A DNA stretch of 64,000 bases from Candidatus Woesebacteria bacterium (GCA_016700095.1 CP065002.1:1124145-1188144); one strand, 5' to 3'; positions 884-63,311 are shown, counted from the first letter of the stretch. Translations and numbers: made by a program. Notes: generated from the sequence alone by a model not told the origin.

Positions 884-1402
884 TTATATATTTAATATAG
901 AAAACATCTCTTTTTCGTAACCTGGACTAATCCAGTCCTCATGCTTTTTGTAAAGAAGATAGTTTCTTACAGTTTTTAAATCAAGAAACTTTACCGCTTC
1001 TACTTCATCTTCTTCGCGTACAATTTCATGAAGCTGAAAATCGGTTTTCCAATAGAATACCGCGCGATACTCTTTGTATTCGTTGGCTTTATAGATTTTG
1101 ACAAGTTGCAAATCAGATACATTCACAGGTAATCCGGTTTCTTCTTGAACTTCTCTCACTGCACCCGTAAAGTAATTATCGTCCGGTCCAATATGACCGC
1201 CAACGATAACTTCCCATTTACCGGCACCATTATCTTTTTTGAACGATCTTTGCTGACATAGCACCTGGTTCTTGTCATTTAATACCCAGACGTGAGCAGT
1301 TCTTCTCCAATAGTCATTGGAAAATACCTCATGTCTTGGTAGTGGTTTTTGTGGTGTGTCGTATTCATCAACAACACATAACAATTCATTTTTATTTATC
1401 AA
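884..1402 (-). CDS. Nudix hydrolase.
   Basis: Canonical Nudix box GGHIGPDDNYFTGAVREVQEETGL (Gx5Ex7REVxEETG). The start is a TTG placed 5 nt after GGAGGTGAT. Confidence 0.8.
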   Translation of the reverse strand: MINKNELLCVVDEYDTPQKPLPRHEVFSNDYWRRTAHVWVLNDKNQVLCQQRSFKKDNGAGKWEVIVGGHIGPDDNYFTGAVREVQEETGLPVNVSDLQLVKIYKANEYKEYRAVFYWKTDFQLHEIVREEDEVEAVKFLDLKTVRNYLLYKKHEDWISPGYEKEMFSILNI

Positions 1403-2211: not shown

Positions 2212-2679
2212 CTACCTACGCACTTTACCAGAGATCCGTTGTTCGTATGCTTGATATATAAAATGTTTAATATCATCGGATATTTTCGGAAGTTGATCCG
2301 TTTTAAAAAGCTTAGCTTTAGCAACTTCGTTCGACTCTTTGAATTCTCCTCCTATAAATTCACCTGTGTATAATATTTCCAAACGTGCTGAATCTCTGTC
2401 AGTTCTTATTTTGAATTTTCTATCAACACTTACAACCAGTCCCGACTCTTCTGTTACCTCGCATTCGAGAGCATCTTTGGGATGTTCTTTGGAATTAATA
2501 TAACCCGAAGGAATTCCCCATTTATCACCATTTCTAAATTCATGCTTAAACAAAAGTACTCTATTTTTATTATCGAAAAATATTCCAGCGGTAGCTACCA
2601 AAAATTCATCATGAAATATTCTCATTATGAATAGTTGTAATTTTTTAAAAGGGAATATTTTCCAAATATATTTAAGCAT
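2212..2679 (-). CDS. Nudix-family hydrolase with a divergent Nudix box.
   Basis: GIPSGYINSKEHPKDALECEVTEESGL approximates Gx5Ex7REVxEExG, with the R replaced by C. Confidence 0.55.
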   Translation of the reverse strand: MLKYIWKIFPFKKLQLFIMRIFHDEFLVATAGIFFDNKNRVLLFKHEFRNGDKWGIPSGYINSKEHPKDALECEVTEESGLVVSVDRKFKIRTDRDSARLEILYTGEFIGGEFKESNEVAKAKLFKTDQLPKISDDIKHFIYQAYEQRISGKVRR

Positions 2680-8553: not shown

Positions 8554-11211
8554 ATGATAAAATTTTTTATGGCATACCATGGACTTACCAATCAAGAAGC
8601 TTTACAAAAACAAAAAGATTACGGTTTTAATGAAATACAAGACTATTTAAAGATTACTCCTTTCCAAATACTTGTAAGACAAATTAAAAGTAATTACATT
8701 ATTTACCTCCTAACATGTGCTTCTATTGTTTCATTCATCGTCGGAAAAGATTTCACTGCATATACGATCCTTGCAGTTGTTGCAACGGTAATATTTACAG
8801 GATTTATTCAAGAATTCAAAGCGGAAGGTTCGATCTCAGCATTAAAGAAAATGTTAATGCCCATTACCATTGTTATGCGAGATGGTAAAAAAACTGAACT
8901 ACCATCAAGAGAAATTGTACCCGATGACATCCTGCTTTTGGGAAATGGTGAGAAAATTCCCGCCGATTGCATACTAGTTGATTCGTATGAATTAAAGATT
9001 AATGAAGCAGCATTAACCGGCGAGTCGACTGAAGTCACAAAAAGTACACTTAAATCAGATGCATCATCACCTACCGATGAAAATAAGATTTTTATGGGTA
9101 CGTATATTGTGAATGGAAGATGTGTGGCAAAAGTCCAACACACGGGTATGAATACTAAATTTGGCAGGATTGCACATCTGATTTCTTCAGCAGAGAAATC
9201 GTTCCCACTGCAAGAAAAAATAAACTATATCACAAAGTATATGGTGATAATCGCTATCACCATGGCTGGTGCCACAAGTACACTAATGATACTAAGGGCA
9301 GATACTCTGGATACGGCAACAATATTGGAAATTCTGGTTCTTGCAATCGCGATTGCCGTATCGGCTTTTCCGGAAGGATTACCTGTCGTACTGATATCAA
9401 CTCTTGCGGTGGGAGCCAAAAGGATGTCGGAAAAAGATGCAATTGTAAACAGAATGTCAATAATAGAAGCATTGGGCGAAACAACTGTTGTATGCTCGGA
9501 TAAAACCGGAACTATAACCAGAGGCGAAATGACAGTCAAAAAAATATTTACCGGAGACAATATATATGAAGTTGAAGGAAGTGGATTTGTCGCACACGGA
9601 AGAATTTTGAAAGATTCGGTTTCTGTTGATTTGAAAGATTCTCCCGAACTTAGACAATTAATAAAAGCAGGCGTGTTATGTACCGATGCAGAGATTGAAC
9701 GATCTGGAACCGATAATGAGTATACAACCATTGGTTCCCCAACCGAGGCGGCTTTGTTAGTACTGGGAGCCAAAACTAATATTTTCAAGGAATCATTTAA
9801 ATCACAAAGGACAAACGAAACACCATTTAGCTCGGAAAGGAAAATGATGTCGGTTCTCCACAAGGAAAACGGTACGTATACAGTATATGTTAAGGGAGCT
9901 CCCGAAATTGTATTGGAAAAATGTGAATACTATTTGGCTAATGGTAAAAAGACCAAACTAAAGAAAGACAAGTTAACTGAAATACTCCAAATACAAAAAG
10001 GCTTGTCGGGAAACGCTTATCGAACATTAGTCGTAGCATATAAAGATATTTCAAACGCCAATAGTTACAATGAAGATAATTTAATATTTTTGGGATTAGT
10101 TGCCATGGAGGATCCTCCACGGGAAAATGTCAAGGAGTCGATAGACATCGCGAAAAGAGCAGGAATTAGAGTTATCATGATAACAGGTGATAACAAAGAT
10201 ACTGCAGTATCAATTGCCCATCAAATCGGTTTAGTCGGAAATGTCATAACAGGAATAGAACTTGACGAAATGTCAGAACGTGAAGTGTCTCTTTCGGTAA
10301 AACACACCAGTATATTTGCCCGAGTACGACCTGATCATAAAATAAAAATAATATCCGCTCTCAAATCAAATGGAGAAATTGTCACAATGACAGGTGACGG
10401 AGTTAATGATGCACCGGCACTAAAAGCAGCACATGTTGGAGTAGCAATGGGTATTAACGGCACCGATGTTTCAAGGTCCGCGTCCGATTTAATACTTAGA
10501 AATGATAGTTTTTCTACAATAATCGATGCTATCGCAGAGGGTAGAAATATATTCAATAACTTACGTAAATTTGTTACATATCAGTTAAGTTGTAACTTTG
10601 CTGAACTCATTACAATTTTTGTAGGTGTACTCTTTGCCCCATTTTTCGGCTGGGAAATACCGGTACTTGTTTCGATACAGATTCTTTTTATGAATCTTGT
10701 TACCGACAATCTTCCTGCAATTACCCTTGGTCTTAATCCCACCTCGAAAGACATTATGTTGACTCCTCCTAGAAAAGGTTCGAAAATTCTAAACGGGATT
10801 CTAATAAAGTTATTAATCGTTACCGGAAGTACAATGGCAGCCTTAACACTTATTGCCTTCTATGTTTCATATAATTTGATTGATTACACAACTCAGACAA
10901 GTCGAACTATCGCATTGGTTACATTGATATTACTTGAAATAGTATTTGCTTTTGGTTTTAGATCATTTAGAAAAGCGACATTGACTAGATCACCATTTGT
11001 AAACAAATATTTAGTATACGCATCCGCAGTTTCACTAATTCTAACTTTTGCAATTATCTACACACCGTTAAATAAGTATTTTGAAACCGTCCCCGTCACT
11101 TTTGCCGGTTGGGCAATTGCAATATCTTTGATGTTACTTGGACTTGTAATCCACGATCTACTCAAGAAATTTAATTTAAGAAACTCAAGATATTTAGAAA
11201 GTATAAATTAA
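8554..11211 (+). CDS. P-type cation-transporting ATPase (type II, Ca2+/Mg2+-like).
   Basis: DKTGTIT phosphorylation motif, TGDN, GDGVNDAPAL hinge, 10 predicted TM helices, 885 aa. The true start is possibly the ATG at 8569 (MAYHGLT). Confidence 0.9.
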   Translation: MIKFFMAYHGLTNQEALQKQKDYGFNEIQDYLKITPFQILVRQIKSNYIIYLLTCASIVSFIVGKDFTAYTILAVVATVIFTGFIQEFKAEGSISALKKMLMPITIVMRDGKKTELPSREIVPDDILLLGNGEKIPADCILVDSYELKINEAALTGESTEVTKSTLKSDASSPTDENKIFMGTYIVNGRCVAKVQHTGMNTKFGRIAHLISSAEKSFPLQEKINYITKYMVIIAITMAGATSTLMILRADTLDTATILEILVLAIAIAVSAFPEGLPVVLISTLAVGAKRMSEKDAIVNRMSIIEALGETTVVCSDKTGTITRGEMTVKKIFTGDNIYEVEGSGFVAHGRILKDSVSVDLKDSPELRQLIKAGVLCTDAEIERSGTDNEYTTIGSPTEAALLVLGAKTNIFKESFKSQRTNETPFSSERKMMSVLHKENGTYTVYVKGAPEIVLEKCEYYLANGKKTKLKKDKLTEILQIQKGLSGNAYRTLVVAYKDISNANSYNEDNLIFLGLVAMEDPPRENVKESIDIAKRAGIRVIMITGDNKDTAVSIAHQIGLVGNVITGIELDEMSEREVSLSVKHTSIFARVRPDHKIKIISALKSNGEIVTMTGDGVNDAPALKAAHVGVAMGINGTDVSRSASDLILRNDSFSTIIDAIAEGRNIFNNLRKFVTYQLSCNFAELITIFVGVLFAPFFGWEIPVLVSIQILFMNLVTDNLPAITLGLNPTSKDIMLTPPRKGSKILNGILIKLLIVTGSTMAALTLIAFYVSYNLIDYTTQTSRTIALVTLILLEIVFAFGFRSFRKATLTRSPFVNKYLVYASAVSLILTFAIIYTPLNKYFETVPVTFAGWAIAISLMLLGLVIHDLLKKFNLRNSRYLESIN

Positions 11212-11455: not shown

Positions 11456-11746
11456 ATGACTTATTTCGTATACATTCTCAGAACTTCATCTAATACTTTA
11501 TATATTGGTCAAACAAATGATGTAAGAAGAAGAATTTCAGAACACAAAAAGAAAGGCAAAAAGTCTGCTAAGTACTTGCGATACTTTAAGTCAGTGGAAC
11601 TTATTCATCAAGAAAAATACAATACTAAAAGTCAGGCTTTAAAACGCGAGGCTGAACTGAAAAAATGGCCAAAAGCAAAAAAAGAGGAACTGTGTAAAAA
11701 CCGCATCCATGAAGTATTGTCAAATAATGAAAAAGACTTATCCTGA
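11456..11746 (+). CDS. GIY-YIG nuclease superfamily protein (YhbQ/UPF0213-like).
   Basis: YFVYILRTSSNTLYIGQTNDVRRRISEH matches the GIY-YIG core. Confidence 0.8.
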   Translation: MTYFVYILRTSSNTLYIGQTNDVRRRISEHKKKGKKSAKYLRYFKSVELIHQEKYNTKSQALKREAELKKWPKAKKEELCKNRIHEVLSNNEKDLS

Positions 11747-11998: not shown

Positions 11999-12116
11999 TC
12001 TAGATAGTATAATTTACTTCGACTTAAGATCTTTTTGGCAGTGGTATGTTTACAAAATACTCAACCCTGTTGAGACACTTACCCGGAAGCGGATTTTTAG
12101 TGAGACTTCACGAACT

Positions 12117-12137
12117 AAAGTCCGTGGTGACTTTTTT
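12117..12137 (+). terminator. Intrinsic terminator after the DUF2892 gene (AAAGTC-cgtggt-GACTTT followed by TTT).
   Basis: 6-bp stem, 6-nt loop and a T-run read directly from the sequence. Confidence 0.4.
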
Positions 12138-12306
12138 CGTCTTCAGCGGTAAGGCAAATCTCTATCGACGCGATAGAACGCGTGGTATTACCGAAAAAAG
12201 AAAATAAAAAGAAGCTTTAAAAAGTAAAAATACACAACACCCTTGGATGTAGGAAGAAAAGAATTGATGCGATTGCGTATTTGTATTGGTATTTTTATAA
12301 ACAGTC

Positions 12307-12678
12307 TTATTTTACCGGTTTGAATTTTATACCGTATTGAATAATTCCCGAAGTGTCAAAGTCTGATATTTTTCTAAATACCGCCTCGACTTTTGTACCT
12401 ATTCTCACATCTTTCCTTTTATAATCCGTTAATTGCGACAACATCAGCGGTCCTTTGGTAAGTTTAATTATAACAATCGTATATGGAACAAACTTTTCAA
12501 AACCTGTCGGAGCAACATATACCTCACTTAGCGAAATTATTTTTCCGTAGGGTTGTAGTAAATAATCCTTTGTTTTTCCTATAGCTCTACACTTTGGACA
12601 AACGGTTTTTGCCGGATAGGTAATTAATTTACACTTCAAACAACATCCCCCAAGAAGTCTATATTTCGACTTCTGCAT
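12307..12678 (-). CDS. DUF35 zinc-ribbon/OB-fold protein, the scaffold of the archaeal-type thiolase/HMG-CoA synthase complex.
   Basis: CLKCKL...CPKC zinc ribbon followed by an OB-fold region, located immediately downstream of the thiolase. The start was moved to the ATG at 12678 (GGAG 4 nt upstream). The track start would overlap the thiolase. Confidence 0.8.
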   Translation of the reverse strand: MQKSKYRLLGGCCLKCKLITYPAKTVCPKCRAIGKTKDYLLQPYGKIISLSEVYVAPTGFEKFVPYTIVIIKLTKGPLMLSQLTDYKRKDVRIGTKVEAVFRKISDFDTSGIIQYGIKFKPVK

Positions 12679-12713
12679 TCTCCAATTTTTTGGTGGTAAA
12701 TTGTGCATGTTAT

Positions 12714-13865
12714 TTAAATTCCGAATATACTTACTACACAAGTTGAACCGGAACCTCCTACATTGTGTGTCAATCCGTATCTGACATTAGGTATTTGTCG
12801 ATCTCCCGCCGTTCCCTCTAGTTGGTGTACAATTTCTATGACTTGTTTAATACCAGTTGCGCCAACTGGATGACCACACCCTTTTAATCCGCCTGAAGTA
12901 TTAATTGGCAACTTTCCACTAAGTGTCGTTTCGGCATTTCTAATTCCCTTGAACGCCATACCTTTTTCATAAAAACCTAAATCTTCCATCGCAAACACTT
13001 CGGCTATAGTAAAGCAATCATGTACTTCGGCAACATTGATATCTTTCGGTTTTATATTTGCTTGTTGGTATGCATTTTTGGCAGCTAATCGAGCCGATTT
13101 TAAAGATGTTAGATCCTGTCGATTACATAAAGACAAACTGTCTGTTGCGGACGAAGATGCCAGAACCGAAACCTTCACTTTATTTTTAACAACATTTGTT
13201 TCACTAGTTAGTATTACAGCAGCAGCCCCGTCCGAAATTGGCGAACAATCAAAAAGCTTCAAAGGCGAAGCAACAGGTGCACTATTTAACACATCATCAA
13301 CTGTAATGCTGTTGTGAAAATGCGCGTTTGGATTAAGGCGTGCATTGTGATGATTTTTTACGGCAATAGTTGCCAAATCTTTCTGGGTTAAGCCATACTT
13401 ATCCATATATACAGTTGCCATTAAAGCATAAAGACCCGCAAAGTTTGCGCCATAAAAACTTTCCACTTCATCGTCGGAAGCTTGCATCAATGCCGCTGTG
13501 ATATCCGGAGTACTTAAATCCGTCATTTTTTCGACACCCACAACCAAAACCGTTTTGTTTTGTCCGCTTTTTATACTTTCAGCTGCCAATTGGATAGCCG
13601 TCCCACCGGATGCACATGCCGCCTCAATGTGTACTGCTTGTACATTAATTCCGAGTTCTCCAGTAACCAATGGACCAAGATGAGATTGTCCTGAGGTTGT
13701 TGGAGCAATCATATTGGCTACATAAACTCCGTCAATATCATCGGGCGATAAACCTGCGTCTTTTAATGCAAGAAGTGACGCTTCCAATGCCAATTGTCGA
13801 AGCGACTTCGACCACAGCTCTCCAAATTTTGTAATACCTGTACCTGCTACCAATATCTTGTTCAT
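12714..13865 (-). CDS. Acetyl-CoA C-acetyltransferase (archaeal/SCP-x-type thiolase).
   Basis: N-terminus MNKILVAGTGITKFGE and C-terminal catalytic-region motifs. It overlaps the HMGS stop by 4 nt. Confidence 0.85.
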   Translation of the reverse strand: MNKILVAGTGITKFGELWSKSLRQLALEASLLALKDAGLSPDDIDGVYVANMIAPTTSGQSHLGPLVTGELGINVQAVHIEAACASGGTAIQLAAESIKSGQNKTVLVVGVEKMTDLSTPDITAALMQASDDEVESFYGANFAGLYALMATVYMDKYGLTQKDLATIAVKNHHNARLNPNAHFHNSITVDDVLNSAPVASPLKLFDCSPISDGAAAVILTSETNVVKNKVKVSVLASSSATDSLSLCNRQDLTSLKSARLAAKNAYQQANIKPKDINVAEVHDCFTIAEVFAMEDLGFYEKGMAFKGIRNAETTLSGKLPINTSGGLKGCGHPVGATGIKQVIEIVHQLEGTAGDRQIPNVRYGLTHNVGGSGSTCVVSIFGI

Positions 13866-14905
13866 AGTACGATTTTGTTTTTTAATCTTAAATATGATGT
13901 ATAGGAAATGTATTTCTTGTTGACAAGAAGTGTCGAGGTTTTGGATGCTTTTCTTTGAATTTTAGTCAATTCACGCGTTGTCTCGAAAACAAACGCATCC
14001 GATCCGGATCCTGATCCATATGATGTTAACAATATATTTTGCCCTGGTTTAGCTATGTCAAAAACGCTACACAAACCAATCATTGACGAAGCCGAGTAGG
14101 TATTTCCTAAATTACCAACCACCAAACCGGCTTTCAATTGTTTTTCGGTAAAACCCATTTTAAGGGCAACGTTACCGGGAAACTTACCATTGGGCATATG
14201 AAATACGACATGATCATAATCACTTGGTTGAGTTTTTGTCTTTTCAAGAATGTTTTTTGTAGCCATCATAATATGCTTAAAATATGCAGGTTCACCGGTA
14301 AACCGCCCGGCATGTTTTGGACAAGTCTCACCTTCACGTCTCCAGAAGTCGGGTGCGTCCGAGGAGTAAGATAAGGTATCAATTATTTTTACTGCAATAT
14401 TTTTACGGCCGATGATTATCGCCGCTGATCCGGCTGCAGCGGTATATTCAAGTGCATCGCCGGCAGTACTTTGCGCACAATCAGTCCCGATGGCTAAACC
14501 ATTTTTAATCATTAGTGACGATACCAACCCGATCACAATTTGCATATTTGCCGTTCCTGCTTTGCAGGCAAATTGGGTATCAATTGCCATATAGTCATTT
14601 GTCATTCCAATTGCTTCGGCAACAATCGTTGATGATGGCTTGACCGCATATGGATGTGATTCAGATCCAATATATATTGCACCCACTTCATTTGATTGAA
14701 TTGTAGATCTTTCAAGTGCTCTTAATGCTGCTTCCACCGAAAGTGTAATCGTATCCTCATCGTAATTCGGTACCGATTTCTCATGTACACCCAAAGCTCT
14801 TCCGGGATTCATTGAACTGTTCCAAGCCCTGGCTATATTTTTGGTTTTAATACGCAAGTGAGGAATACTAACTCCGTATCCAACTATGCCAACATTTTTC
14901 ATCAC
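13862..14905 (-). CDS. Hydroxymethylglutaryl-CoA synthase (archaeal type).
   Basis: MMKNVGIVGYGVSIPHLRIK N-terminus typical of archaeal-type HMGS. It has a 4-nt overlap with each neighbouring gene. Confidence 0.9.
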   Translation of the reverse strand: MMKNVGIVGYGVSIPHLRIKTKNIARAWNSSMNPGRALGVHEKSVPNYDEDTITLSVEAALRALERSTIQSNEVGAIYIGSESHPYAVKPSSTIVAEAIGMTNDYMAIDTQFACKAGTANMQIVIGLVSSLMIKNGLAIGTDCAQSTAGDALEYTAAAGSAAIIIGRKNIAVKIIDTLSYSSDAPDFWRREGETCPKHAGRFTGEPAYFKHIMMATKNILEKTKTQPSDYDHVVFHMPNGKFPGNVALKMGFTEKQLKAGLVVGNLGNTYSASSMIGLCSVFDIAKPGQNILLTSYGSGSGSDAFVFETTRELTKIQRKASKTSTLLVNKKYISYTSYLRLKNKIVL

Positions 14906-16098
14906 ACTTGTCCTCCTCTTGCGTATTTCATATGTGCTTTAGCCAAATCATTAGATGACAACGCCGCAAGCAAAGATAATTCACCACAAAGAACTGCAGA
15001 TGCAACTATTTCAGCGAATTTCTTGGCATTAGTTCCTGAAGGTTTACCAGATCCTGCTATACCCATTATTGACAGAGCTTGACTCTGCGATGAAAGATTA
15101 GTTCCTCCTCCAATCGTTCCCAATATCAGACTTGGTAAATCAACACTTATATAAAGGTTGCTGTTATCGGCTTCTATGGAAGTCGTTCCCAAAGATCCTT
15201 CGACGACATGTGCCAAGTCTTGCCCCGTTGCCGCAAAAATAGCTGCTACTACATTTACATGATGTGCATTTACCCCCATCGCACCGGCTACCTGAGATCC
15301 GATCAATAATTTTCGAACATAAACTTCGTATATTTTTTGCGATGTAGTTTTCAGCGTTTTTACGAGAATATTTTTCGGTATAACTACTTCTGCATGGACA
15401 GTATGACCCCTGCCATGTAATTTATTTATCCATGCTGGTTTTTTGTCGGTGCACACGTTTCCACTCAACGAAATGCAATTTACTTGTGTTTTTGGTAAAA
15501 GAAATTTTCTTATAACATGATCACAAGCAAAGGTTGCCATATTCATCCCCATGGCATCATTGGTATCAAATCTAAATCTTAAATATACATTCCTTCCGGA
15601 TATATAAGGATCGATGGCGATAAGTTTGATGAATGGTGAAGTCTCGGTAACCAACTTTTCAATCCGTGTAATATTTTTTTGTACAAATTTAATAAAAGCT
15701 TGTGCTTCGTTATAACTATTAACACAAAAAACTGGCGCTCGCGTCATTTCACTTTTAACAATAGCAACCGACACTCCTCCCGCTGAAGTTGCCGCTTTAC
15801 ACCCCCTGTTTACACTTGCAACCAATGCACCTTCGGTTGTCGCAAGCGGTATATAATAATTTCCTTGCGCATATTTACCTCTAACGGTTAAGGGTCCGGC
15901 AACACCCAGGGGTATATCGACTTTTCCAATTAGATTCTCGCAGTTTTTAGTCGATACATCGTCAACATTAAAACTTGGATTTTCGATACTGTCTAATTTT
16001 ATATGAAGTTTTTTTTCTAAAACAGACCTTCTTTGGCCCATCGGATCACTTGAATTTATTATATTTTCCGTTGGGGTCTTGTTAACAATTTTTTGCAT
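14902..16098 (-). CDS. HMG-CoA reductase, class I (short archaeal-type).
   Basis: DAMGMN and GTIGGGT motifs, about 400 aa. It is the first gene of the operon, with a TATAAT box about 20 nt upstream and no SD. Confidence 0.9.
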   Translation of the reverse strand: MQKIVNKTPTENIINSSDPMGQRRSVLEKKLHIKLDSIENPSFNVDDVSTKNCENLIGKVDIPLGVAGPLTVRGKYAQGNYYIPLATTEGALVASVNRGCKAATSAGGVSVAIVKSEMTRAPVFCVNSYNEAQAFIKFVQKNITRIEKLVTETSPFIKLIAIDPYISGRNVYLRFRFDTNDAMGMNMATFACDHVIRKFLLPKTQVNCISLSGNVCTDKKPAWINKLHGRGHTVHAEVVIPKNILVKTLKTTSQKIYEVYVRKLLIGSQVAGAMGVNAHHVNVVAAIFAATGQDLAHVVEGSLGTTSIEADNSNLYISVDLPSLILGTIGGGTNLSSQSQALSIMGIAGSGKPSGTNAKKFAEIVASAVLCGELSLLAALSSNDLAKAHMKYARGGQV

Positions 16099-16415: not shown

Positions 16416-17546
16416 TTATCCAATTACTTTCTCCCAAGGAAATATATTTCTACCAAAATGCCCATATGAAGCCGTTTTTAGATAGATCGGATTTCTTAAG
16501 TTAAGACCACTTATGATTCCCTCAACTGATGTGTCTAATAACTTATGCATATACATTTTAATTTCTTTTTGTGAAGCTTTTTCTGTTCCGAAAGTTTCCA
16601 CGTCCTGCATGACAGGTTTTCTCGCACCGATGAAATACGCCAGTCTAACTTCTGCCCTTTGAGCAAGACCTTTAGCCACAATATTTTTAGCAAGAAATCT
16701 GGCTGCATATGCTCCGGATCGATCAACTTTTGTTGGGTCTTTACCGCTAAAAGCGCCACCCCCAAGACGGGCATAACTTCCATAACTATCCACTGCGATT
16801 TTTCGACCCGTAACCCCCGTGTCCGATGCCGGTCCTCCGATATGCCACACACCTGTTCCGTTAACAATCAAATCTTTTGGAGATATTTCAAATCCATATT
16901 TCAATAACACAGGGGAAACGACTTTTTTGTAAATGTCATCTTTTACTTTATTAAGTGCAACTTTAGGAGAATGTGGTACAGCAACCACGACATTTGTTAT
17001 TCGATATGGTTTACCATTTTTATATTCAACAGTCACTTGGCTTTTTCCGTCAGGACGAAGATACTTCAGTATATTTTTCTCTCTTACTTTATCTAATAAT
17101 TCACAAAGATTGTGTGCAATCATAATTGGAAGCGGCATAAATACTTTTGTTTCATTACATGCATATCCAAACATCATCCCCTGATCCCCGGCACCTTTTT
17201 TATTTACGCCCTGGGCAATTTCGCTTGATTGTTCATGAATATTTATAGAAATATCACTAGCAGGCGAAAAGCCCAATTCCGGCTCAATATAACCTAATCT
17301 TTTAATTTGTTTTTTAATTATTTTTTCGTAGTCAACCTTATAGTCGGAGGTAATTTCACCCGCAACAAACACTTTATTAGTCGTCACCATTGTTTCAACT
17401 GCTACTCTTCCAAACTCATCTTTTTTGTATACCTCATCAAGAATAGCGTCACTTATCTGATCGCATATTTTATCGGGGTGACCAGCACAAACAGACTCGG
17501 AGGTAAATAAATTTTTGGAGATGATTGTTTTTTGTCGACTGACCAT
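16416..17546 (-). CDS. metK: S-adenosylmethionine synthetase.
   Basis: FTSESVCAGHPDKICDQISD N-terminal signature. The start was reset to the ATG at 17544..17546 (RBS AAGGAAAG), because the upstream track extension overlaps the riboswitch. Confidence 0.95.
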   Translation of the reverse strand: MVSRQKTIISKNLFTSESVCAGHPDKICDQISDAILDEVYKKDEFGRVAVETMVTTNKVFVAGEITSDYKVDYEKIIKKQIKRLGYIEPELGFSPASDISINIHEQSSEIAQGVNKKGAGDQGMMFGYACNETKVFMPLPIMIAHNLCELLDKVREKNILKYLRPDGKSQVTVEYKNGKPYRITNVVVAVPHSPKVALNKVKDDIYKKVVSPVLLKYGFEISPKDLIVNGTGVWHIGGPASDTGVTGRKIAVDSYGSYARLGGGAFSGKDPTKVDRSGAYAARFLAKNIVAKGLAQRAEVRLAYFIGARKPVMQDVETFGTEKASQKEIKMYMHKLLDTSVEGIISGLNLRNPIYLKTASYGHFGRNIFPWEKVIG

Positions 17547-17554
17547 ATCTTTCC

Positions 17555-17645
17555 TTTTGGCCGGAATTAGCACCGTGTTTTAAATCGGTTGCTGGGTAGC
17601 TTAACAAGCCGGATCTTTAGCTACCTCTCTTGATACCTAAATAAA
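17555..17645 (-). ncRNA. SAM-I (S-box) riboswitch in the metK 5' leader.
   Basis: Reverse-strand sequence TATCAAGAGAGGTAGC...GCTACCCAGCAACC...ACGGTGCTAATTCCGG contains the S-box hallmarks (AUCAAGAGnGG, GCAACC, GGUGCUAAUUCC) directly upstream of metK. Confidence 0.8.
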
Positions 17646-58770: not shown

Positions 58771-59290
58771 CTACACATCCTCCTTTGGTCTATACTGCAG
58801 CGCCTCTGCTATATGATTGGTAGATACTTCCTTTGTTTCTTCTAAATCCGCTATTGTTCGGGAAATTTTTATTACCTTAAAATAACTTCGAGCTGACAAA
58901 TTCATGGAAGATATTGCACTTCTTAGTATTGTTCGACAGTCAGCATTTAGCAGACAAAATTCTTTCACGGTATTGGAACTCATTTCGCCATTTGATACAA
59001 TTTTTAATCCCTTAAACCTCTTTAGTTGAGCATCCCGTGCTTTTTGTATTCGCCGTTGTATAGATTTCGAGTTTTCGTTTTCATTGGTTTGTTTTCCAAT
59101 TAGTTTGTATGTGTCAACCGATGGAACCCACACATGAATATCGATTCTGTCAAGAAGAGGTCCGGAAATTCGTTTAGCATAGCGTGAGATCTGTCCCGGT
59201 AAACACTTACATGGCCGTTTGGGGTCTTTGTAATATCCACACGGGTGGGGGTGTACATTGTTTTCAACAAGGACACCATCTAATACATCA
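58771..59290 (-). pseudogene. comM: 3' fragment of comM/yifB (Mg-chelatase-like AAA+ ATPase C-terminal domain), separated from its 5' part by the inserted element.
   Basis: HPCGYYKDPKRPCKCLPGQISRYAKRISGPLLDRIDIHVWVP...LSARSYFKVIKISRTIADLEETKEVSTNHIAEALQYR is collinear with the ComM C-terminus (NPCPCGYY...QRYxxRISGPLLDRIDL...LSARAYxRILKVARTIADL...HLAEALQYR). Confidence 0.75.
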
Positions 59291-60921
59291 TCAACAATAA
59301 ACTCTATATGAACCTCACCCTTGTCTCCTACAACAACCCTCTTTATGAATTGCTGCAAAACCTTCTTTTTCTTAGCCAAATCCCCATTATTGAAGTGTTC
59401 GTCAAACTTCATAAGGAACTTCCTCTTTTTATCAAGTAAAGCATTGTTTTCCTCTATAGAGGCAAGGCTACGCTCTAATTTTGTCAGTTCTTCTTTGGCT
59501 GTCTTTAGTGCCATCTCAACTTCTTTTGAGCGTTCATAGTAAGTTTGAGGAGTAACAAAGCCCTCCTGAAATGCACTGTCCCACCTATCTTTTGCAAAAT
59601 TGAGCTTAAAGATTTCCTTTTTCTTGGCTGCAACCTGATGCTTCAGGCTCTCAATAAACTTATCAATCGATAACCTCTCAAATGCTTCTTTAACTTCAGC
59701 ATTTTGTGCCAATTCATGAATCCTCTGTATTATCACTCCTTCCAGTTTAGCAGCTGACATTTTGTAAGTGTTGCATGGACAGACTTTGACACCGCTAATA
59801 TGATTGCATGGACAACCATAGTGTATTCGTGGTTTGGCATTAGGTGACCTCTTGAGAGTTGAGGGAGTAGGGTTTTGTCGCTTGTAGTGTAGTCTGTGCC
59901 CACAGTGGCAATATGCCAGAGGTATTAATAATCCCTCACTCGCAATAGCCCTGCCTCTGAAAATATACCGCTGTCTCATCCGTTCCTGGGCTACCTTGAA
60001 TGTATCTTCATCAATCAGTTTTGGGATTTTCTCGTTAGGCACTAATATCCATTCTTCTGGTGAGGTTTGCTTTCGCTTACCTCTGAAAACAGGTCTATGG
60101 TTATGCCTTACTATGCCTATATAAAAAGGGTTTGCCAAGATTTTCCTAACGCTGGGAGGTCTCCACAACCCTCCCATAGGAGCTGGAATTTTTTCCTTGT
60201 TCAAGACAGTGCAAATTTTGCGGTAAGAATAATCCTCCCTGACAAAGTGTTTGAATATTCTCTTTACCACCTCAGACTGCGCCTCATTCACCAAGATGTC
60301 AAATTCTACTGTTGGATGTATCCGCTTATAATCTTTGTTTAAACCATAAGGAACATTGTGAGGGTCACCCCTTAAAGCTCTCTTCCTCGCACCTTGCCTT
60401 ACTTTTCTCCTTATACCTTTAACATCTATGTCAGCTTTTATATCGACTATCGCCTCATGGATAACCTCTGAATCATCCTGCTGGGGGTCATAGAGTCTTG
60501 GGTCAACAATTTCCCTGGGTTGGTTATAGGAATAAAATTGGATAAAGTTCTTTTTTAATGTTTGCCTAACAAGTAAAGCTGTATCCCTATCCCTGCTAAA
60601 CCTATCTGCGTCATACACAACTAAAACATCAAATTCCCCTTTGTTGGCAGCGTCCATCATTGCCATCAACCCCTCTCGGCTTTCGATGCGGTGACCTTTC
60701 TGTACATCCTTAAAAACCAAATCAACAAACTTCCAGTGGTGGTTGTCTATCGCTTGCAAACACCTTTTTTTCTGTTCATCGAGGCTTCCCTTTGTAGGGT
60801 CTGCCTGGTCATCTGTTGATACTCGGATATAGTAGGCTGCCCTTACTTCTACTTCCTCAATTTCAACCTTCGGTGTAACTGAATTTAGACCTAATTTGTT
60901 AAGCAGTTTTGTGTTTTCCAT
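58771..60921 (-). CDS. Large serine recombinase (about 555 aa of recombinase proper) whose ORF reads through the attachment junction into the comM 3' fragment.
   Basis: Resolvase catalytic domain YYIRVSTDDQ...RFSRD, recombinase domain, zinc-ribbon cysteines (CHCGH...CPCNHISGVKVCPC), coiled coil. There is no stop codon before the comM-derived 160 aa. Confidence 0.9.
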   Translation of the reverse strand: MENTKLLNKLGLNSVTPKVEIEEVEVRAAYYIRVSTDDQADPTKGSLDEQKKRCLQAIDNHHWKFVDLVFKDVQKGHRIESREGLMAMMDAANKGEFDVLVVYDADRFSRDRDTALLVRQTLKKNFIQFYSYNQPREIVDPRLYDPQQDDSEVIHEAIVDIKADIDVKGIRRKVRQGARKRALRGDPHNVPYGLNKDYKRIHPTVEFDILVNEAQSEVVKRIFKHFVREDYSYRKICTVLNKEKIPAPMGGLWRPPSVRKILANPFYIGIVRHNHRPVFRGKRKQTSPEEWILVPNEKIPKLIDEDTFKVAQERMRQRYIFRGRAIASEGLLIPLAYCHCGHRLHYKRQNPTPSTLKRSPNAKPRIHYGCPCNHISGVKVCPCNTYKMSAAKLEGVIIQRIHELAQNAEVKEAFERLSIDKFIESLKHQVAAKKKEIFKLNFAKDRWDSAFQEGFVTPQTYYERSKEVEMALKTAKEELTKLERSLASIEENNALLDKKRKFLMKFDEHFNNGDLAKKKKVLQQFIKRVVVGDKGEVHIEFIVDDVLDGVLVENNVHPHPCGYYKDPKRPCKCLPGQISRYAKRISGPLLDRIDIHVWVPSVDTYKLIGKQTNENENSKSIQRRIQKARDAQLKRFKGLKIVSNGEMSSNTVKEFCLLNADCRTILRSAISSMNLSARSYFKVIKISRTIADLEETKEVSTNHIAEALQYRPKEDV

Positions 60922-60924
60922 AAG

Positions 60925-61806
60925 TTACCAAGTTATTACTGTCCTTTGACCTGTAATCTCATCATGGGCAATAGTGCCAATCATCGAACCAACTGATGTT
61001 AGGTCAATTTTCTGCAAAGAGTTTTCCCATATCTCTTTTAACTTTTTCCCTTCTTGGGTCTCATTAATGAATTTCTGGGCTTCCCATTCGCCAAAGGGTT
61101 CTTTCAAAACCCCATCCAAACCCCTTCCTATAAAAGATTCAAAGCTAAGGCATGACAGGCCAACTAAGTGCATTATGTCAACCTGTGTTAGTGGAGATGC
61201 CTTCGATATTATTGGTGACAGGTGTCTAAGCCACCAGTCCCTTGACACAGTGTTTATTTGCTCTGGGGTTAATAGTTCTTTCTTTACATTCAGTGGTCTG
61301 ATTGAGAAGATTGTGACAGCCAACGCCAAGTACCTTATGTGCTTTGGACTCAAGTTAGAAATTGAGTCTATTGCTTGAGGTGACACAAGAGATATTAGAC
61401 TATCCTCATTCGCAATTAGCCTCTCAGATATAACCCTCGCTAATAATTTATGCCTTTCTTCATTCGATGTCTTTGATGCTGCATATAATGCATCCTGGAA
61501 GGTTGCAGAAAAAGCTGGGTCTCTAAACGCTGACTTAACTAATGCGGCAGTAACTGGGTTGTCTTTGCTTGATTCCTCAATTTTCTTAATTTTCTCTGCA
61601 ATATCTTCCAGATAATGTAGTGTGTTTTCCTCAGCTTTCTTTTGGACTTCCTTTTGGTGAGGTCTCCATTTATCCTTTAACCACTTAATCGCTGGACTTA
61701 GTGCAGCCTTGACCACCATTGAACCTGCCTCAGAAGCCCCACTTTTAGCGATTTCCTCTACACCTTTTGTCAATACATCTGTTACTGGTTTTGGGTCTAT
61801 TGCCAT
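60925..61806 (-). CDS. Hypothetical 293-aa cargo protein of the element (no family recognised).
   Basis: Clean ORF between the HTH gene (shared ATGA overlap) and the recombinase (3-nt gap). Predominantly helical composition. Confidence 0.7.
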   Translation of the reverse strand: MAIDPKPVTDVLTKGVEEIAKSGASEAGSMVVKAALSPAIKWLKDKWRPHQKEVQKKAEENTLHYLEDIAEKIKKIEESSKDNPVTAALVKSAFRDPAFSATFQDALYAASKTSNEERHKLLARVISERLIANEDSLISLVSPQAIDSISNLSPKHIRYLALAVTIFSIRPLNVKKELLTPEQINTVSRDWWLRHLSPIISKASPLTQVDIMHLVGLSCLSFESFIGRGLDGVLKEPFGEWEAQKFINETQEGKKLKEIWENSLQKIDLTSVGSMIGTIAHDEITGQRTVITW

Positions 61807-62075
61807 TACTTACCACCTATCCTTTCCTTAATTTCAGTGATACTAAGCCTTTTAGACTGATACCTTTTAACTTCAGATATTATCTTTAGGCTCTTGTCCT
61901 CATCAAATAACTGGTAACCTCCAGGAGTTTTTTCCACCACCTCAAGCAAGCCTTCTTTTGCGTAGTAACGGATAGTAGAAGGGAGCACCCCTGCCTTTAA
62001 TGCTAATTGTCCAACTTTAACCTTTTTCATAATTTTTTTCCGCAAAATTTTTTCCTTACCAGTCCCAAATGTCAT
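61806..62075 (-). CDS. MerR-family HTH DNA-binding protein (excisionase/regulator-like).
   Basis: VKVGQLALKAGVLPSTIRYYAKEGLL is a MerR-type HTH. Confidence 0.75.
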   Translation of the reverse strand: MTFGTGKEKILRKKIMKKVKVGQLALKAGVLPSTIRYYAKEGLLEVVEKTPGGYQLFDEDKSLKIISEVKRYQSKRLSITEIKERIGGK

Positions 62076-62152
62076 TTTGGTTCTGGACTACCACCCATAA
62101 AAGAGTCTCATAAATTTAATGGTTGGTTGGAAACCCATACCCCCCTTGGCTA

Positions 62153-62350
62153 TTATGGATTTGTCCTACCCCCATCTTTGTTCTCAACTGCTAAATCTTT
62201 ATCCAGGCGTTCCTTTTCTCGCATAGCCCTAATGTTCTGAGCTGCTATCGTAAAGATGCGGTTATAGGCAGTCGTCAAAGCCCTATCAATCTCCTCTGGA
62301 GTGCCTACTTGCTTAAATACTATGTTAGGTGGAACTACTTTTCTTCCCAT
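62153..62350 (-). CDS. Hypothetical 65-aa protein.
   Basis: Lies 4 nt downstream of the integrase gene. No family recognised. Confidence 0.4.
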   Translation of the reverse strand: MGRKVVPPNIVFKQVGTPEEIDRALTTAYNRIFTIAAQNIRAMREKERLDKDLAVENKDGGRTNP

Positions 62351-62354
62351 AATT

Positions 62355-63311
62355 TCAACTTCCTGTATTTATGATTATCGGAACTTCAGGTGGGCTTTCG
62401 CTAAAAGCAACCCCATCAAAAGCGTTGTAATACCTTGGCAAATCCGCTTGCTTCTTGATGCTATCGTTGTACACTTGCAACATTTCTAAGCTGCGGTGTC
62501 TGGTATATTGTGCAACCTCAAGCAAGTCTCCTTTATATGTCTTAATGAGCTTGGTGGTGAAGTAGTGCCTAAACCCATGTGTGGACTTCTCGATATCTAA
62601 ACCCTTGAGAACAGTAGTCACAATTTCCCTGATTGCTCTTGTGGTAAGTCTCTGGTTATTGCGGTTGTTGCTTATAGAAGTAAACAATGCACCAGAGGCT
62701 TTTCTGTTTGATTTTATGTAATCCAAAAGCACTCTTACTGATTCAGGGTGTAGGTCAATCGGTTCTTTGTCATCCCTGCCTTTTCCCTGGATTAGTGCTG
62801 TCATATTTGATAAATCCAAGTCCTCTACATCAAGCCTCACAATTTCAACTTGCCTCAAGCCCTGCAATGCCAGTAGGCTCATTATCGCTTTGACTCGTGT
62901 GTTCTGTGGAGTAGGGTCAAGAGACCTGAGGTAACTTACAAGCCTTGCCATTTCAATCTCGCTAACCCCTGTCCTTTTATGCTTTTTCTCTTGGGTGAAT
63001 GTCTTTATGTTTTGGGTTATATCAACTGGTAATACTCCTTGTCGATTCAACTCCTTGAGGAATATCCTGGCAGCAGCAAGATATTTATTCTTTGTTGAGG
63101 TGCTTAAATCAGTCCTTCCTATCAAATATCTCTTAAATTCTAAGAATGTGTTATGAGTAAATCCATTACCCTGGAGAAAATCTAAAAATAGTCCAATGCG
63201 ATACTTGTAGTCTATGCGTGTACTTTCGGCTACATCAAGAAGGTCAAATATCTTCTGTGCGCTCAAATGTGGGTTATTTATCGTCAAATCTAAATCGTTG
63301 TTCATGGTCAT
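62355..63311 (-). CDS. Tyrosine recombinase/phage-type integrase.
   Basis: N-terminal SAM-like domain. Catalytic R...HGFRHYF...RHRSLEMLQVY (R-H-R-Y) signature. Confidence 0.88.
   Translation of the reverse strand: MTMNNDLDLTINNPHLSAQKIFDLLDVAESTRIDYKYRIGLFLDFLQGNGFTHNTFLEFKRYLIGRTDLSTSTKNKYLAAARIFLKELNRQGVLPVDITQNIKTFTQEKKHKRTGVSEIEMARLVSYLRSLDPTPQNTRVKAIMSLLALQGLRQVEIVRLDVEDLDLSNMTALIQGKGRDDKEPIDLHPESVRVLLDYIKSNRKASGALFTSISNNRNNQRLTTRAIREIVTTVLKGLDIEKSTHGFRHYFTTKLIKTYKGDLLEVAQYTRHRSLEMLQVYNDSIKKQADLPRYYNAFDGVAFSESPPEVPIIINTGS

Follow-up and report, generated by a model that had tools for sequence, protein, structure and literature searches.

A predicted upper mevalonate pathway operon of archaeal type, with a DUF35 gene, in Candidatus Woesebacteria

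The thiolase, the HMG-CoA synthase (HMGS) and a DUF35 protein of archaea reportedly form a complex, which Vögeli is said to have described in PNAS in 2018. Among the bacteria of the CPR, the majority of Microgenomates carry archaeal AACT, HMGS and HMGR-I, which form CPR-specific clades close to archaea, and the MVA genes of CPR are usually syntenic with late-step genes, IPK and cis-prenyltransferase (Hoshino & Gaucher 2018, PMC6107057). DUF35 has no occurrence in that paper (PMC6107057). PhlACB of Pseudomonas (PDB 5M3K) and MucABC/SmaATase of Streptococcus (PDB 9VBO) are Friedel-Crafts acyltransferases, without the E-C-H-N tetrad and HDxF, and make no HMG-CoA (PMC12960953).

The window, i.e. 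the whole 64-kb stretch of DNA that was analysed, represents 5% of the genome, the source contig measuring 1,274,238 bp. Four co-directional genes are found at 12307-16098 on its minus strand, in the order HMG-CoA reductase (HMGR), HMGS, thiolase and DUF35 (Table 1). The four open reading frames lie exactly where the first-pass annotation had placed them, and GenBank already carries all four genes (accessions in Table 1). The host had been taken for a bacterium, and this is borne out both by the operon proteins, which are 100% identical to GenBank proteins of Candidatus Woesebacteria (CPR/Patescibacteria, Microgenomates), and by bacterial markers across the window: a SAM-I/IV riboswitch with a bacterial metK immediately upstream, and genes for SecDF, RelA/SpoT, RecJ, a D-Ala-D-Ala carboxypeptidase, MacB/HlyD and an OmpR-type two-component system. 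The window also encodes glycosyltransferases and a PAP2 phosphatase that weakly matches undecaprenyl-PP phosphatase.

Table 1. Features of the operon region, in window coordinates.
Feature	Coordinates	Strand	Accession	Length	Basis or remark
Class I (NADPH-type) HMG-CoA reductase	14902..16098	-	QQS38844	398 aa	PF00368 411 bits
Archaeal-type HMG-CoA synthase	13862..14905	-	QQS38843	346 aa from ATG 14902, or 347 aa from GTG 14905	
SCP-x/archaeal-type acetoacetyl-CoA thiolase	12714..13865	-	QQS38842	383 aa	Thiolase_C_1 161 bits, Thiolase_N 102 bits
DUF35 zinc-ribbon/OB-fold protein	12307..12708	-	QQS38841	133 aa	PF01796 56 bits, PF12172 27 bits
Shine-Dalgarno GGAGG	14913..14917	-			Within HMGR 3' end, 7-10 nt ahead of HMGS start; direct sequence reading
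Two weak terminator-like hairpins	12060..12178	-			130-250 nt past DUF35 stop; consensus scan

The junction between HMGS and thiolase is a true ATGA, with a 4-nt overlap. That between HMGR and HMGS depends on the start of HMGS: the overlap is 4 nt (GTGTGA) only if translation begins at the GTG 14905, and 1 nt (TGATG) with the ATG at 14902, which is the GenBank choice and fits the archaeal N-terminus. Thus the 4-nt overlaps proposed among the first three genes hold at the second junction and, at the first, only with the GTG start. The thiolase stop and the DUF35 ATG (12708) are separated by a gap of 5 nt, without overlap. The overlaps (ATGA, and TGATG or GTGTGA) together with this gap point to HMGR, HMGS, thiolase and DUF35 forming one operon. 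Bacterial Shine-Dalgarno signals had also been proposed; a clear one precedes HMGS, while reading of the regions upstream of HMGR, thiolase and DUF35 gave no obvious one, so that the proposal stands for HMGS only.

The promoter scan returned 22 sites versus 21.7 expected from shuffled sequence; as such sites are no commoner than in shuffled sequence, promoter assignments are unsupported. One promoter-like site, TTAACA-16-TATAAT (16085-16058, 11/12 match), lies inside the annotated N-terminus of HMGR. Because of this site, and because HMGR is 379 aa long in one relative (L084), the start of HMGR is uncertain, either 16098 or Met20 at 16041. The open reading frame of DUF35 extends over 12307-12741 and its start is most likely the ATG 12708, which is the GenBank call and the point from which the 130-aa chain 6ESQ_E aligns end to end. 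The genes beyond the operon end (11456-11746, and a P-type ATPase, 8554-11211) belong to the other strand. The two hairpins past DUF35 possibly mark the end of the transcription unit, an assignment to which we attach low confidence.

HMGR scores 432 bits with TIGR00533 (NADPH, class I), just below the equivalog cut-off of 441.8, versus 56 bits with TIGR00532 (class II). It is thus a class I enzyme and not of the MvaA type (class II). Its top PDB match is 6HR7, the HMGR of Methanothermococcus thermolithotrophicus (343 bits). The conserved motifs ENxIG, TTEGALVAS, DAMGMN, DKKPA and GTxGGGT and the C-terminal His389 were found, and the regions of the catalytic Glu, Lys, Asp and His are present. 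For HMGS the archaeal model TIGR00748 (HMG_CoA_syn_Arc) gives 448 bits (cut-off 353) versus 114 bits for the bacterial MvaS model TIGR01835, which places it outside the ordinary bacterial MvaS type; NF003274 gives 492 bits. Compared directly, it scores 391 bits with 6ESQ_I, 204 bits with PhlA and about 63 bits with bacterial MvaS. Its tetrad, E82-C114-H236-N268, is invariant (77/77 aligned sequences).

The thiolase reaches 499 bits with NF004720 and 448 bits with NF053570 (the AACT of M. thermolithotrophicus), versus 110 bits with the thiolase II model TIGR01930; it is therefore, by these models, of the archaeal AACT type and not a thiolase II. Among structures and related proteins the scores are 332 bits for 7YVY, 312 bits for 6ESQ_A and about 105 bits for PhlC. 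The motifs C84-A-S86 (CxS), H282-D283-C-F285 (HDxF) and G331-H332-P333 (GHP) are present. The small protein carries both DUF35 domains (PF01796 and PF12172) and matches over residues 7-132 the chain 6ESQ_E, which is the scaffold in the archaeal complex (E=2.4e-28, 102 bits); with PhlB the values are 1e-11 to 1e-12 and 49 bits. At its four zinc Cys (C23, C26, C37, C40) all sequences agree (67/67). In all, the four proteins have solved-structure matches in M. thermolithotrophicus (6ESQ complex and 6HR7 reductase), and none of their catalytic or zinc-binding motifs is disrupted. The first-pass annotation had named them as class I HMGR, HMGS, SCP-x-type thiolase and DUF35 protein, and each of these names can be kept.

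We read the locus as the upper mevalonate pathway (acetyl-CoA to mevalonate) of Candidatus Woesebacteria, probably encoded by one translationally coupled operon whose genes belong to a CPR-specific enzyme lineage, old residents of the phylum and not a recent archaeal import. To this reading we give a probability of about 0.9. By homology with the complex of M. thermolithotrophicus, DUF35 would hold thiolase and HMGS together and is presumed to be the scaffold of a thiolase/HMGS complex. The conversion of two acetyl-CoA to acetoacetyl-CoA, which is unfavourable, would be pulled forward by the immediate and favourable HMGS reaction, the two sharing a CoA-binding site. The class I reductase would convert HMG-CoA to mevalonate, and mevalonate would presumably lead to IPP for undecaprenyl-type lipid carriers. 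Thus we infer complex formation, substrate channelling, the use of NADPH and the fate of mevalonate; homology suggests an assembly with a fused CoA-binding site and channelling of the intermediate.

Reference loci were gathered with the patterns ESHPYAVK and [ST]DTPDFWR. Among the matches listed, which are mostly archaea and include no Woesebacteria, the order HMGS-thiolase-DUF35 is found in 64 of the 80 loci from GTDB genomes; this order is near-universal across archaea. The CPR relatives (L068, L072, L081, L084 and L085/86) were sampled individually, outside the pattern scan, and all of them have the four-gene order with HMGR first. In each of the complete CPR loci examined, DUF35 accompanies thiolase and HMGS. 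HMGR directly upstream of HMGS is encountered in CPR loci only, in none of the archaeal loci sampled. Hence the arrangement, first described as the one characterised in archaea, deserves this description for the HMGS-thiolase-DUF35 core but not for the HMGR in front of it. In most relatives the operon goes on to include MVK, MVD, IPK and IDI, the late-step genes coming directly after DUF35 in L068, L072, L081, L083 and L085/86, whereas the Woesebacteria locus and L084 end at DUF35. No flanking gene is common to the window and L084 at E<=1e-3, so that a shared origin of the break finds no support.

The lower-pathway genes had been noted as missing from the window, and two approaches agree with this. 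Pfam/NCBIfam scans of all window ORFs of at least 150 aa gave no MVK, PMVK, MVD/MPD, IPK or IDI, and tblastn of the window with CPR MVK, PMVK, MVD, IPK, IDI-1, IDI-2 and prenyltransferases gave no lower-pathway gene. One NUDIX ORF (884-1402), for which IDI-1 is the best NCBIfam match, was rejected as IDI-1: it scores 43 bits with NF002995 (cut-off 127) and 27 bits with TIGR02150 (cut-off 106), and it reads IVGGHI, with no Cys, where the IDI-1 of the L083 operon has NAVCSHP (xxCxHP motif). The Cys of this motif is catalytic in IDI-1 (E. coli Idi). A second NUDIX ORF (2212-2679) has no similarity to IDI-1.

The affinity of the enzymes, archaeal or bacterial, was assessed on a neighbour-joining tree of HMGS plus thiolase (725 columns, 77 taxa), made from tblastn segments and midpoint-rooted without outgroups. 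The enzymes are archaeal-type, yet they fall in a CPR-only clade (bootstrap 100/100) with no archaeon inside, and within no archaeal group; the window groups with Microgenomates (100/100) and with Daviesbacteria (100/100). In this midpoint-rooted tree the CPR clade adjoins L014 and L047, two contigs of uncultured archaea (bootstrap 85), and the best matches, whether to structures or to models, are all archaeal, as would be expected if the operon had been recently acquired by horizontal transfer from an archaeon, e.g. a DPANN neighbour, and were foreign to the genome. We consider this very improbable: besides the grouping with Microgenomates, protein identity is higher to CPR relatives (60-64%) than to archaea (about 50-58%), the HMGR-first order distinguishes the sampled CPR loci from the archaeal ones, and published trees match the CPR species tree (PMC6107057). 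The GC3 of the operon (0.29-0.33) is moreover that of the housekeeping genes (0.27-0.34), mobile-element genes having 0.37-0.43, which makes a recent transfer from archaea unlikely. Hardly credible is the idea of a repurposed complex, which would make no HMG-CoA and act as a PhlACB/MucABC-like Friedel-Crafts C-acyltransferase for a secondary metabolite, or as a BbsAB/ChsH2-type thiolase. Bacterial HMGS/ACAT/DUF35 trios of the same architecture that have lost HMG-CoA synthesis do exist (PMC12960953), and PhlA/B/C and BbsA/B are among the weaker matches of our proteins. But the E-C-H-N tetrad of HMGS and the HDxF of the thiolase, reported lost in these trios, are both kept here, and the scores with 6ESQ are about 2-3 times those with Phl (391 vs 204, 312 vs 105 and 102 vs 49 bits). 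The HMGR translationally coupled directly upstream and the extension of the operon into MVK, MVD, IPK and IDI in relatives also argue against such a function.

The end of the operon at DUF35 bears on a further reading, in which the pathway would consist of its upper half only: the Woesebacteria lineage, and the relative L084, would be without the kinases and the decarboxylase, either lost or never had, and in a reduced episymbiont mevalonate or HMG-CoA would be an end product, or be traded with a host or partner, and not serve for its own IPP. This is unlikely. The clean end of the operon, followed by convergent genes, in L084 as well, and the 64 kb devoid of any lower-pathway gene would agree with it; but the window is a small part (5%) of the genome. 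When MVK and MVD of L081, the closest relative, were used as queries, no protein of the Woesebacteria source genome appeared among the best 120 of about 3000 matches, despite the upper enzymes of the window being 62-64% identical to those of L081; such a non-appearance nevertheless proves little. The D-Ala-D-Ala carboxypeptidase, PAP2 phosphatase and glycosyltransferases of the window, which are peptidoglycan- or lipid-carrier-related, point to a requirement for IPP; all the catalytic residues are under purifying selection, as suits a working pathway, and early-step and late-step genes are identically distributed in CPR (PMC6107057).

An upper mevalonate pathway at this locus is known biology, because archaeal AACT, HMGS and HMGR-I have already been reported for most Microgenomates (PMC6107057). 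[quoted passage not shown] As none of the complete CPR loci examined has thiolase and HMGS without DUF35, the CPR pathway too probably includes the channelling complex. In the Woesebacteria genome and one relative the upper half is uncoupled from the late-step genes, which matters only if the late steps are absent from the genome.

Compared with known systems, the locus shares with the classical bacterial upper pathway (PhaA/MvaE-N thiolase II, MvaS and class II MvaA, of Gram-positive cocci) the chemistry from acetyl-CoA to mevalonate. That pathway has, to our knowledge, no DUF35 partner, and the window proteins score 114 (HMGS), 56 (class II HMGR) and 110 bits (thiolase II) on its models, versus 432-499 bits on the archaeal, class I and SCP-x-type models. 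PhlACB and MucABC/SmaATase have the same tripartite architecture (HMGS-like, thiolase-like and DUF35), homologous in all three subunits; the window proteins differ by keeping the tetrad and HDxF, by scoring far lower against them and by their link to HMGR. The CPR clusters of Hoshino & Gaucher (PMC6107057) have the same enzyme set in a CPR host, and the window falls in that CPR clade, but in its case the late-step genes either stand apart from the cluster or are lacking. Relative to the 6ESQ-type archaeal complex, the window differs by its CPR host, by its separate clade and by HMGR in the same operon, and the assembly is here a predicted one; the same three proteins are nevertheless found, with the same lengths and gene order and full-length matches (391, 312 and 102 bits), and they preserve the tetrad, the HDxF/GHP/CxS motifs and the four Cys of the zinc ribbon.

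The four co-directional ORFs of the operon encode a class I HMG-CoA reductase (HMGR), an HMG-CoA synthase (HMGS), an SCP-x-like thiolase and a DUF35 protein. These are the identities proposed by the first-pass annotation, and both family and structure scores bear them out (see table). The three enzymes are of archaeal rather than ordinary bacterial type: bacterial HMGS (TIGR01835), thiolase II and class II HMGR models give only 114, 110 and 56 bits respectively, below the values in the table. The chains of the thiolase/HMGS/DUF35 complex of Methanothermococcus thermolithotrophicus (6ESQ) match the window proteins with 391 (HMGS), 312 (thiolase) and 102 bits (DUF35), the last confirming, with the zinc ribbon and OB fold, that the small ORF is DUF35. 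The reductase of the same organism (6HR7) matches HMGR with 343 bits. The HMGS has a 100% identical GenBank counterpart from Candidatus Woesebacteria, and the GenBank entries of the four proteins (QQS38841-QQS38844) carry the expected product names.

Features of the window, and late-step clusters in the coordinates of the reference loci
Feature	Position	Strand	Remarks
HMGR, class I, 398 aa	14902-16098	-	PF00368 411 bits; TIGR00533 (NADPH type) 432 bits
HMGS, archaeal type	13862-14905	-	TIGR00748 HMG_CoA_syn_Arc 448 bits, exceeds model cut-off
SCP-x-like thiolase, 383 aa	12714-13865	-	NF004720 499 bits; M. thermolithotrophicus acetyl-CoA acetyltransferase model 448 bits
DUF35 protein, 133 aa	12307-12708	-	ChsH2-type zinc ribbon + OB fold, family profiles
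metK, bacterial type	16416-17573	-	immediately precedes operon; riboswitch directly upstream
SAM-I/IV riboswitch	17518-17641	-	49.5 bits, exceeds gathering score
NUDIX ORF	884-1402	-	
Second NUDIX hydrolase gene	2212-2679	-	
Serine recombinase-ComM/YifB ORF, 716 aa	58771-60921	-	Resolvase + Recombinase domains (residues 28-318)
LPO_1073/Vpar_1526 family gene	60925-61806	-	
Xer-like tyrosine recombinase	62355-63311	-	
Late-step cluster, L081	12571-15311		
Late-step cluster, L083	6070-9456		
Late-step cluster, L085	12615-16056		
Late-step cluster, L072	8372-11102		
Late-step cluster, L068	9373-13260		

The HMGS tetrad E-C-H-N and the thiolase motif HDxF, alongside CxS and GHx, separate true HMG-CoA-forming complexes from repurposed bacterial Friedel-Crafts acyltransferases (PMC12960953). 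All these features are kept in the window proteins: the tetrad E82, C114, H236, N268 is invariant in 77/77 aligned homologues, and the thiolase has C84-x-S86, H282-D283-x-F285 and G331-H332-P333. In contrast, the Phl-type acyltransferases are repurposed; their subunits PhlA, PhlC and PhlB match HMGS, thiolase and DUF35 with 204, about 105 and 49 bits, below the 6ESQ scores. The zinc cysteines of DUF35 (C23, C26, C37, C40) are invariant in 67/67 sequences, and the class I motifs of HMGR are conserved. Through this strong homology we infer a putative mechanism for the operon.

The scan of GTDB species genomes gave at least 80 loci, mostly archaeal; the rest included Ignavibacteria, Stahlbacteria, Acidobacteria and Gemmatimonadetes, together with two contigs labelled as CPR. 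Microgenomates contigs (L081, L082/83, L084, L085/86) were added individually. HMGS-thiolase-DUF35 occurs in the same order at 64 of the 80 loci listed by tblastn with the four window proteins, the exceptions being mostly truncated contigs. Among the sampled loci, HMGR lies directly upstream on the same strand in CPR only, i.e. in these Microgenomates contigs, L068 (Daviesbacteria) and L072. Thus only the core trio follows the archaeal arrangement, which had been claimed for the whole operon, whereas the HMGR-first layout is, in the present sample, CPR-specific. DUF35 immediately follows the thiolase in every complete CPR locus analysed, which makes the channelling complex a likely component of the pathway in CPR too. 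The archaeal-type trio is also present at nine loci in MAGs of the other bacterial phyla named above, with no HMGR near it in flanks of up to 10 kb (shorter on some contigs). The PNAS paper of 2018 that described the archaeal complex reportedly noted the trio in some bacteria too.

A simple neighbour-joining tree of concatenated HMGS and thiolase (725 columns, 77 taxa, 100 bootstraps, midpoint-rooted), made from tblastn segments, unites the window with the Microgenomates contigs (bootstrap 100%), and this group with Daviesbacteria and L072 (100%); both groupings accord with published Bayesian trees. The CPR group adjoins two uncultured archaeal contigs (85%). The other bacterial phyla form their own clade (100%) elsewhere in the tree, among archaeal sequences. 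The GC3 of the operon (0.29-0.33) is that of the housekeeping genes of the window (0.27-0.34), against 0.37-0.43 for mobile-element genes at its right end. Membership of the CPR clade and this GC3 argue against a recent acquisition from archaea. Two labels disagree with the tree: L041 (Saccharimonadales) falls inside Micrarchaeota (100%), and L072 (uncultured Gammaproteobacteria), which has a full CPR-style mevalonate cluster, pairs with Daviesbacteria (100%). Both are probably mis-binned contigs, otherwise transfers.

DUF35 is followed directly by MVK in L068, L072, L081, L083 and L085/86, then by PMVK-MVD or MVD-IPK and IDI-1, with prenyltransferases close by. L083 and L068 have the classical MVK-PMVK-MVD-IDI1 set; L081, L085/86 and L072 have MVK-MVD-like-IPK and no PMVK, a set similar to the decarboxylase-then-IPK route of haloarchaea and Chloroflexi. 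Upstream, L081 has in addition a type 2 IDI (FMN_dh). The operon of the window, like that of its relative L084, stops at DUF35. Family scans and tblastn with CPR proteins found no late-step gene within the 64 kb, as the first reading had it, and with MVK and MVD of L081 as queries none from the 1,274,238-bp source contig was among the best 120 matches listed, which hints only weakly at their absence from the genome. A pathway genuinely reduced to its upper half would account for this and is very improbable: the window encodes peptidoglycan-related and lipid-carrier-related proteins, and the late-step genes are therefore expected elsewhere in the genome. For the NUDIX ORF 884-1402 the top NCBIfam match is IDI-1, yet its 43 bits fall far short of the cut-off (127), and the protein does not have the catalytic Cys present in the operon-encoded IDI-1 of L083; it is thus an IDI-like Nudix protein, not an IDI.

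Overlaps of 4 nt had been described among the first three genes. That of HMGS and thiolase (ATGA) stands; that of HMGR and HMGS is 4 nt with GTG 14905 and 1 nt (TGATG) with ATG 14902, which is the GenBank choice and fits the archaeal N-terminus. A bacterial Shine-Dalgarno signal precedes HMGS (GGAGG, 14913-14917, 7-10 nt 5' of the start), but none is evident in the sequence upstream of HMGR, thiolase or DUF35. DUF35 most likely starts at ATG 12708, 5 nt past the thiolase stop, the mechanical ORF list giving TTG 12741 as alternative. The HMGR start is uncertain because a TTAACA-16-TATAAT site sits within the annotated N-terminus and the HMGR of L084 has 379 aa, which would correspond to Met20; overall the promoter scan did no better than on shuffled sequence. 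Two weak hairpins, then opposite-strand genes, lie 3' of DUF35.

The window is bacterial throughout (SecD/SecF, RelA/SpoT, RecJ, D-Ala-D-Ala carboxypeptidase, MacB/HlyD, an OmpR-type two-component pair, bacterial GluRS, CCA-adding enzyme). Since the mechanical metK ORF, called from a GTG, overlaps the riboswitch at its 5' end, the true metK start must be further downstream. GC skew is persistently negative across most of 1-64000 (cumulative -3.26), and by far the most genes lie on the minus strand, which fits a single replichore that is read against the leading strand. At the right end, where GC3 is 0.37-0.43 versus about 0.29 elsewhere, the 716-aa ORF consists of a large serine recombinase fused in frame with the C-terminal portion of a Mg-chelatase-like ATPase of the ComM/YifB type (residues 556-711), and lies beside the two further genes of the table. 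The region 58771-63311 has the look of a mobile element that was inserted into comM and whose other end may lie beyond the window.

In CPR an archaeal AACT replaces thiolase II, and the AACT, HMGS and HMGR-I clades are congruent with the CPR species tree, near archaea; most Microgenomates have these three enzymes (Hoshino & Gaucher 2018, PMC6107057). That paper does not mention DUF35. Its picture is that drawn from the sequence by the first-pass annotation: the observation holds and its interpretation is supported, and the finding is thus real but already known, with little new in an enzyme set described for this bacterial group. In PMC6107057 the CPR mevalonate genes usually stand in synteny with those of the late steps, IPK and a cis-prenyltransferase, whereas the operon of the window ends at DUF35.
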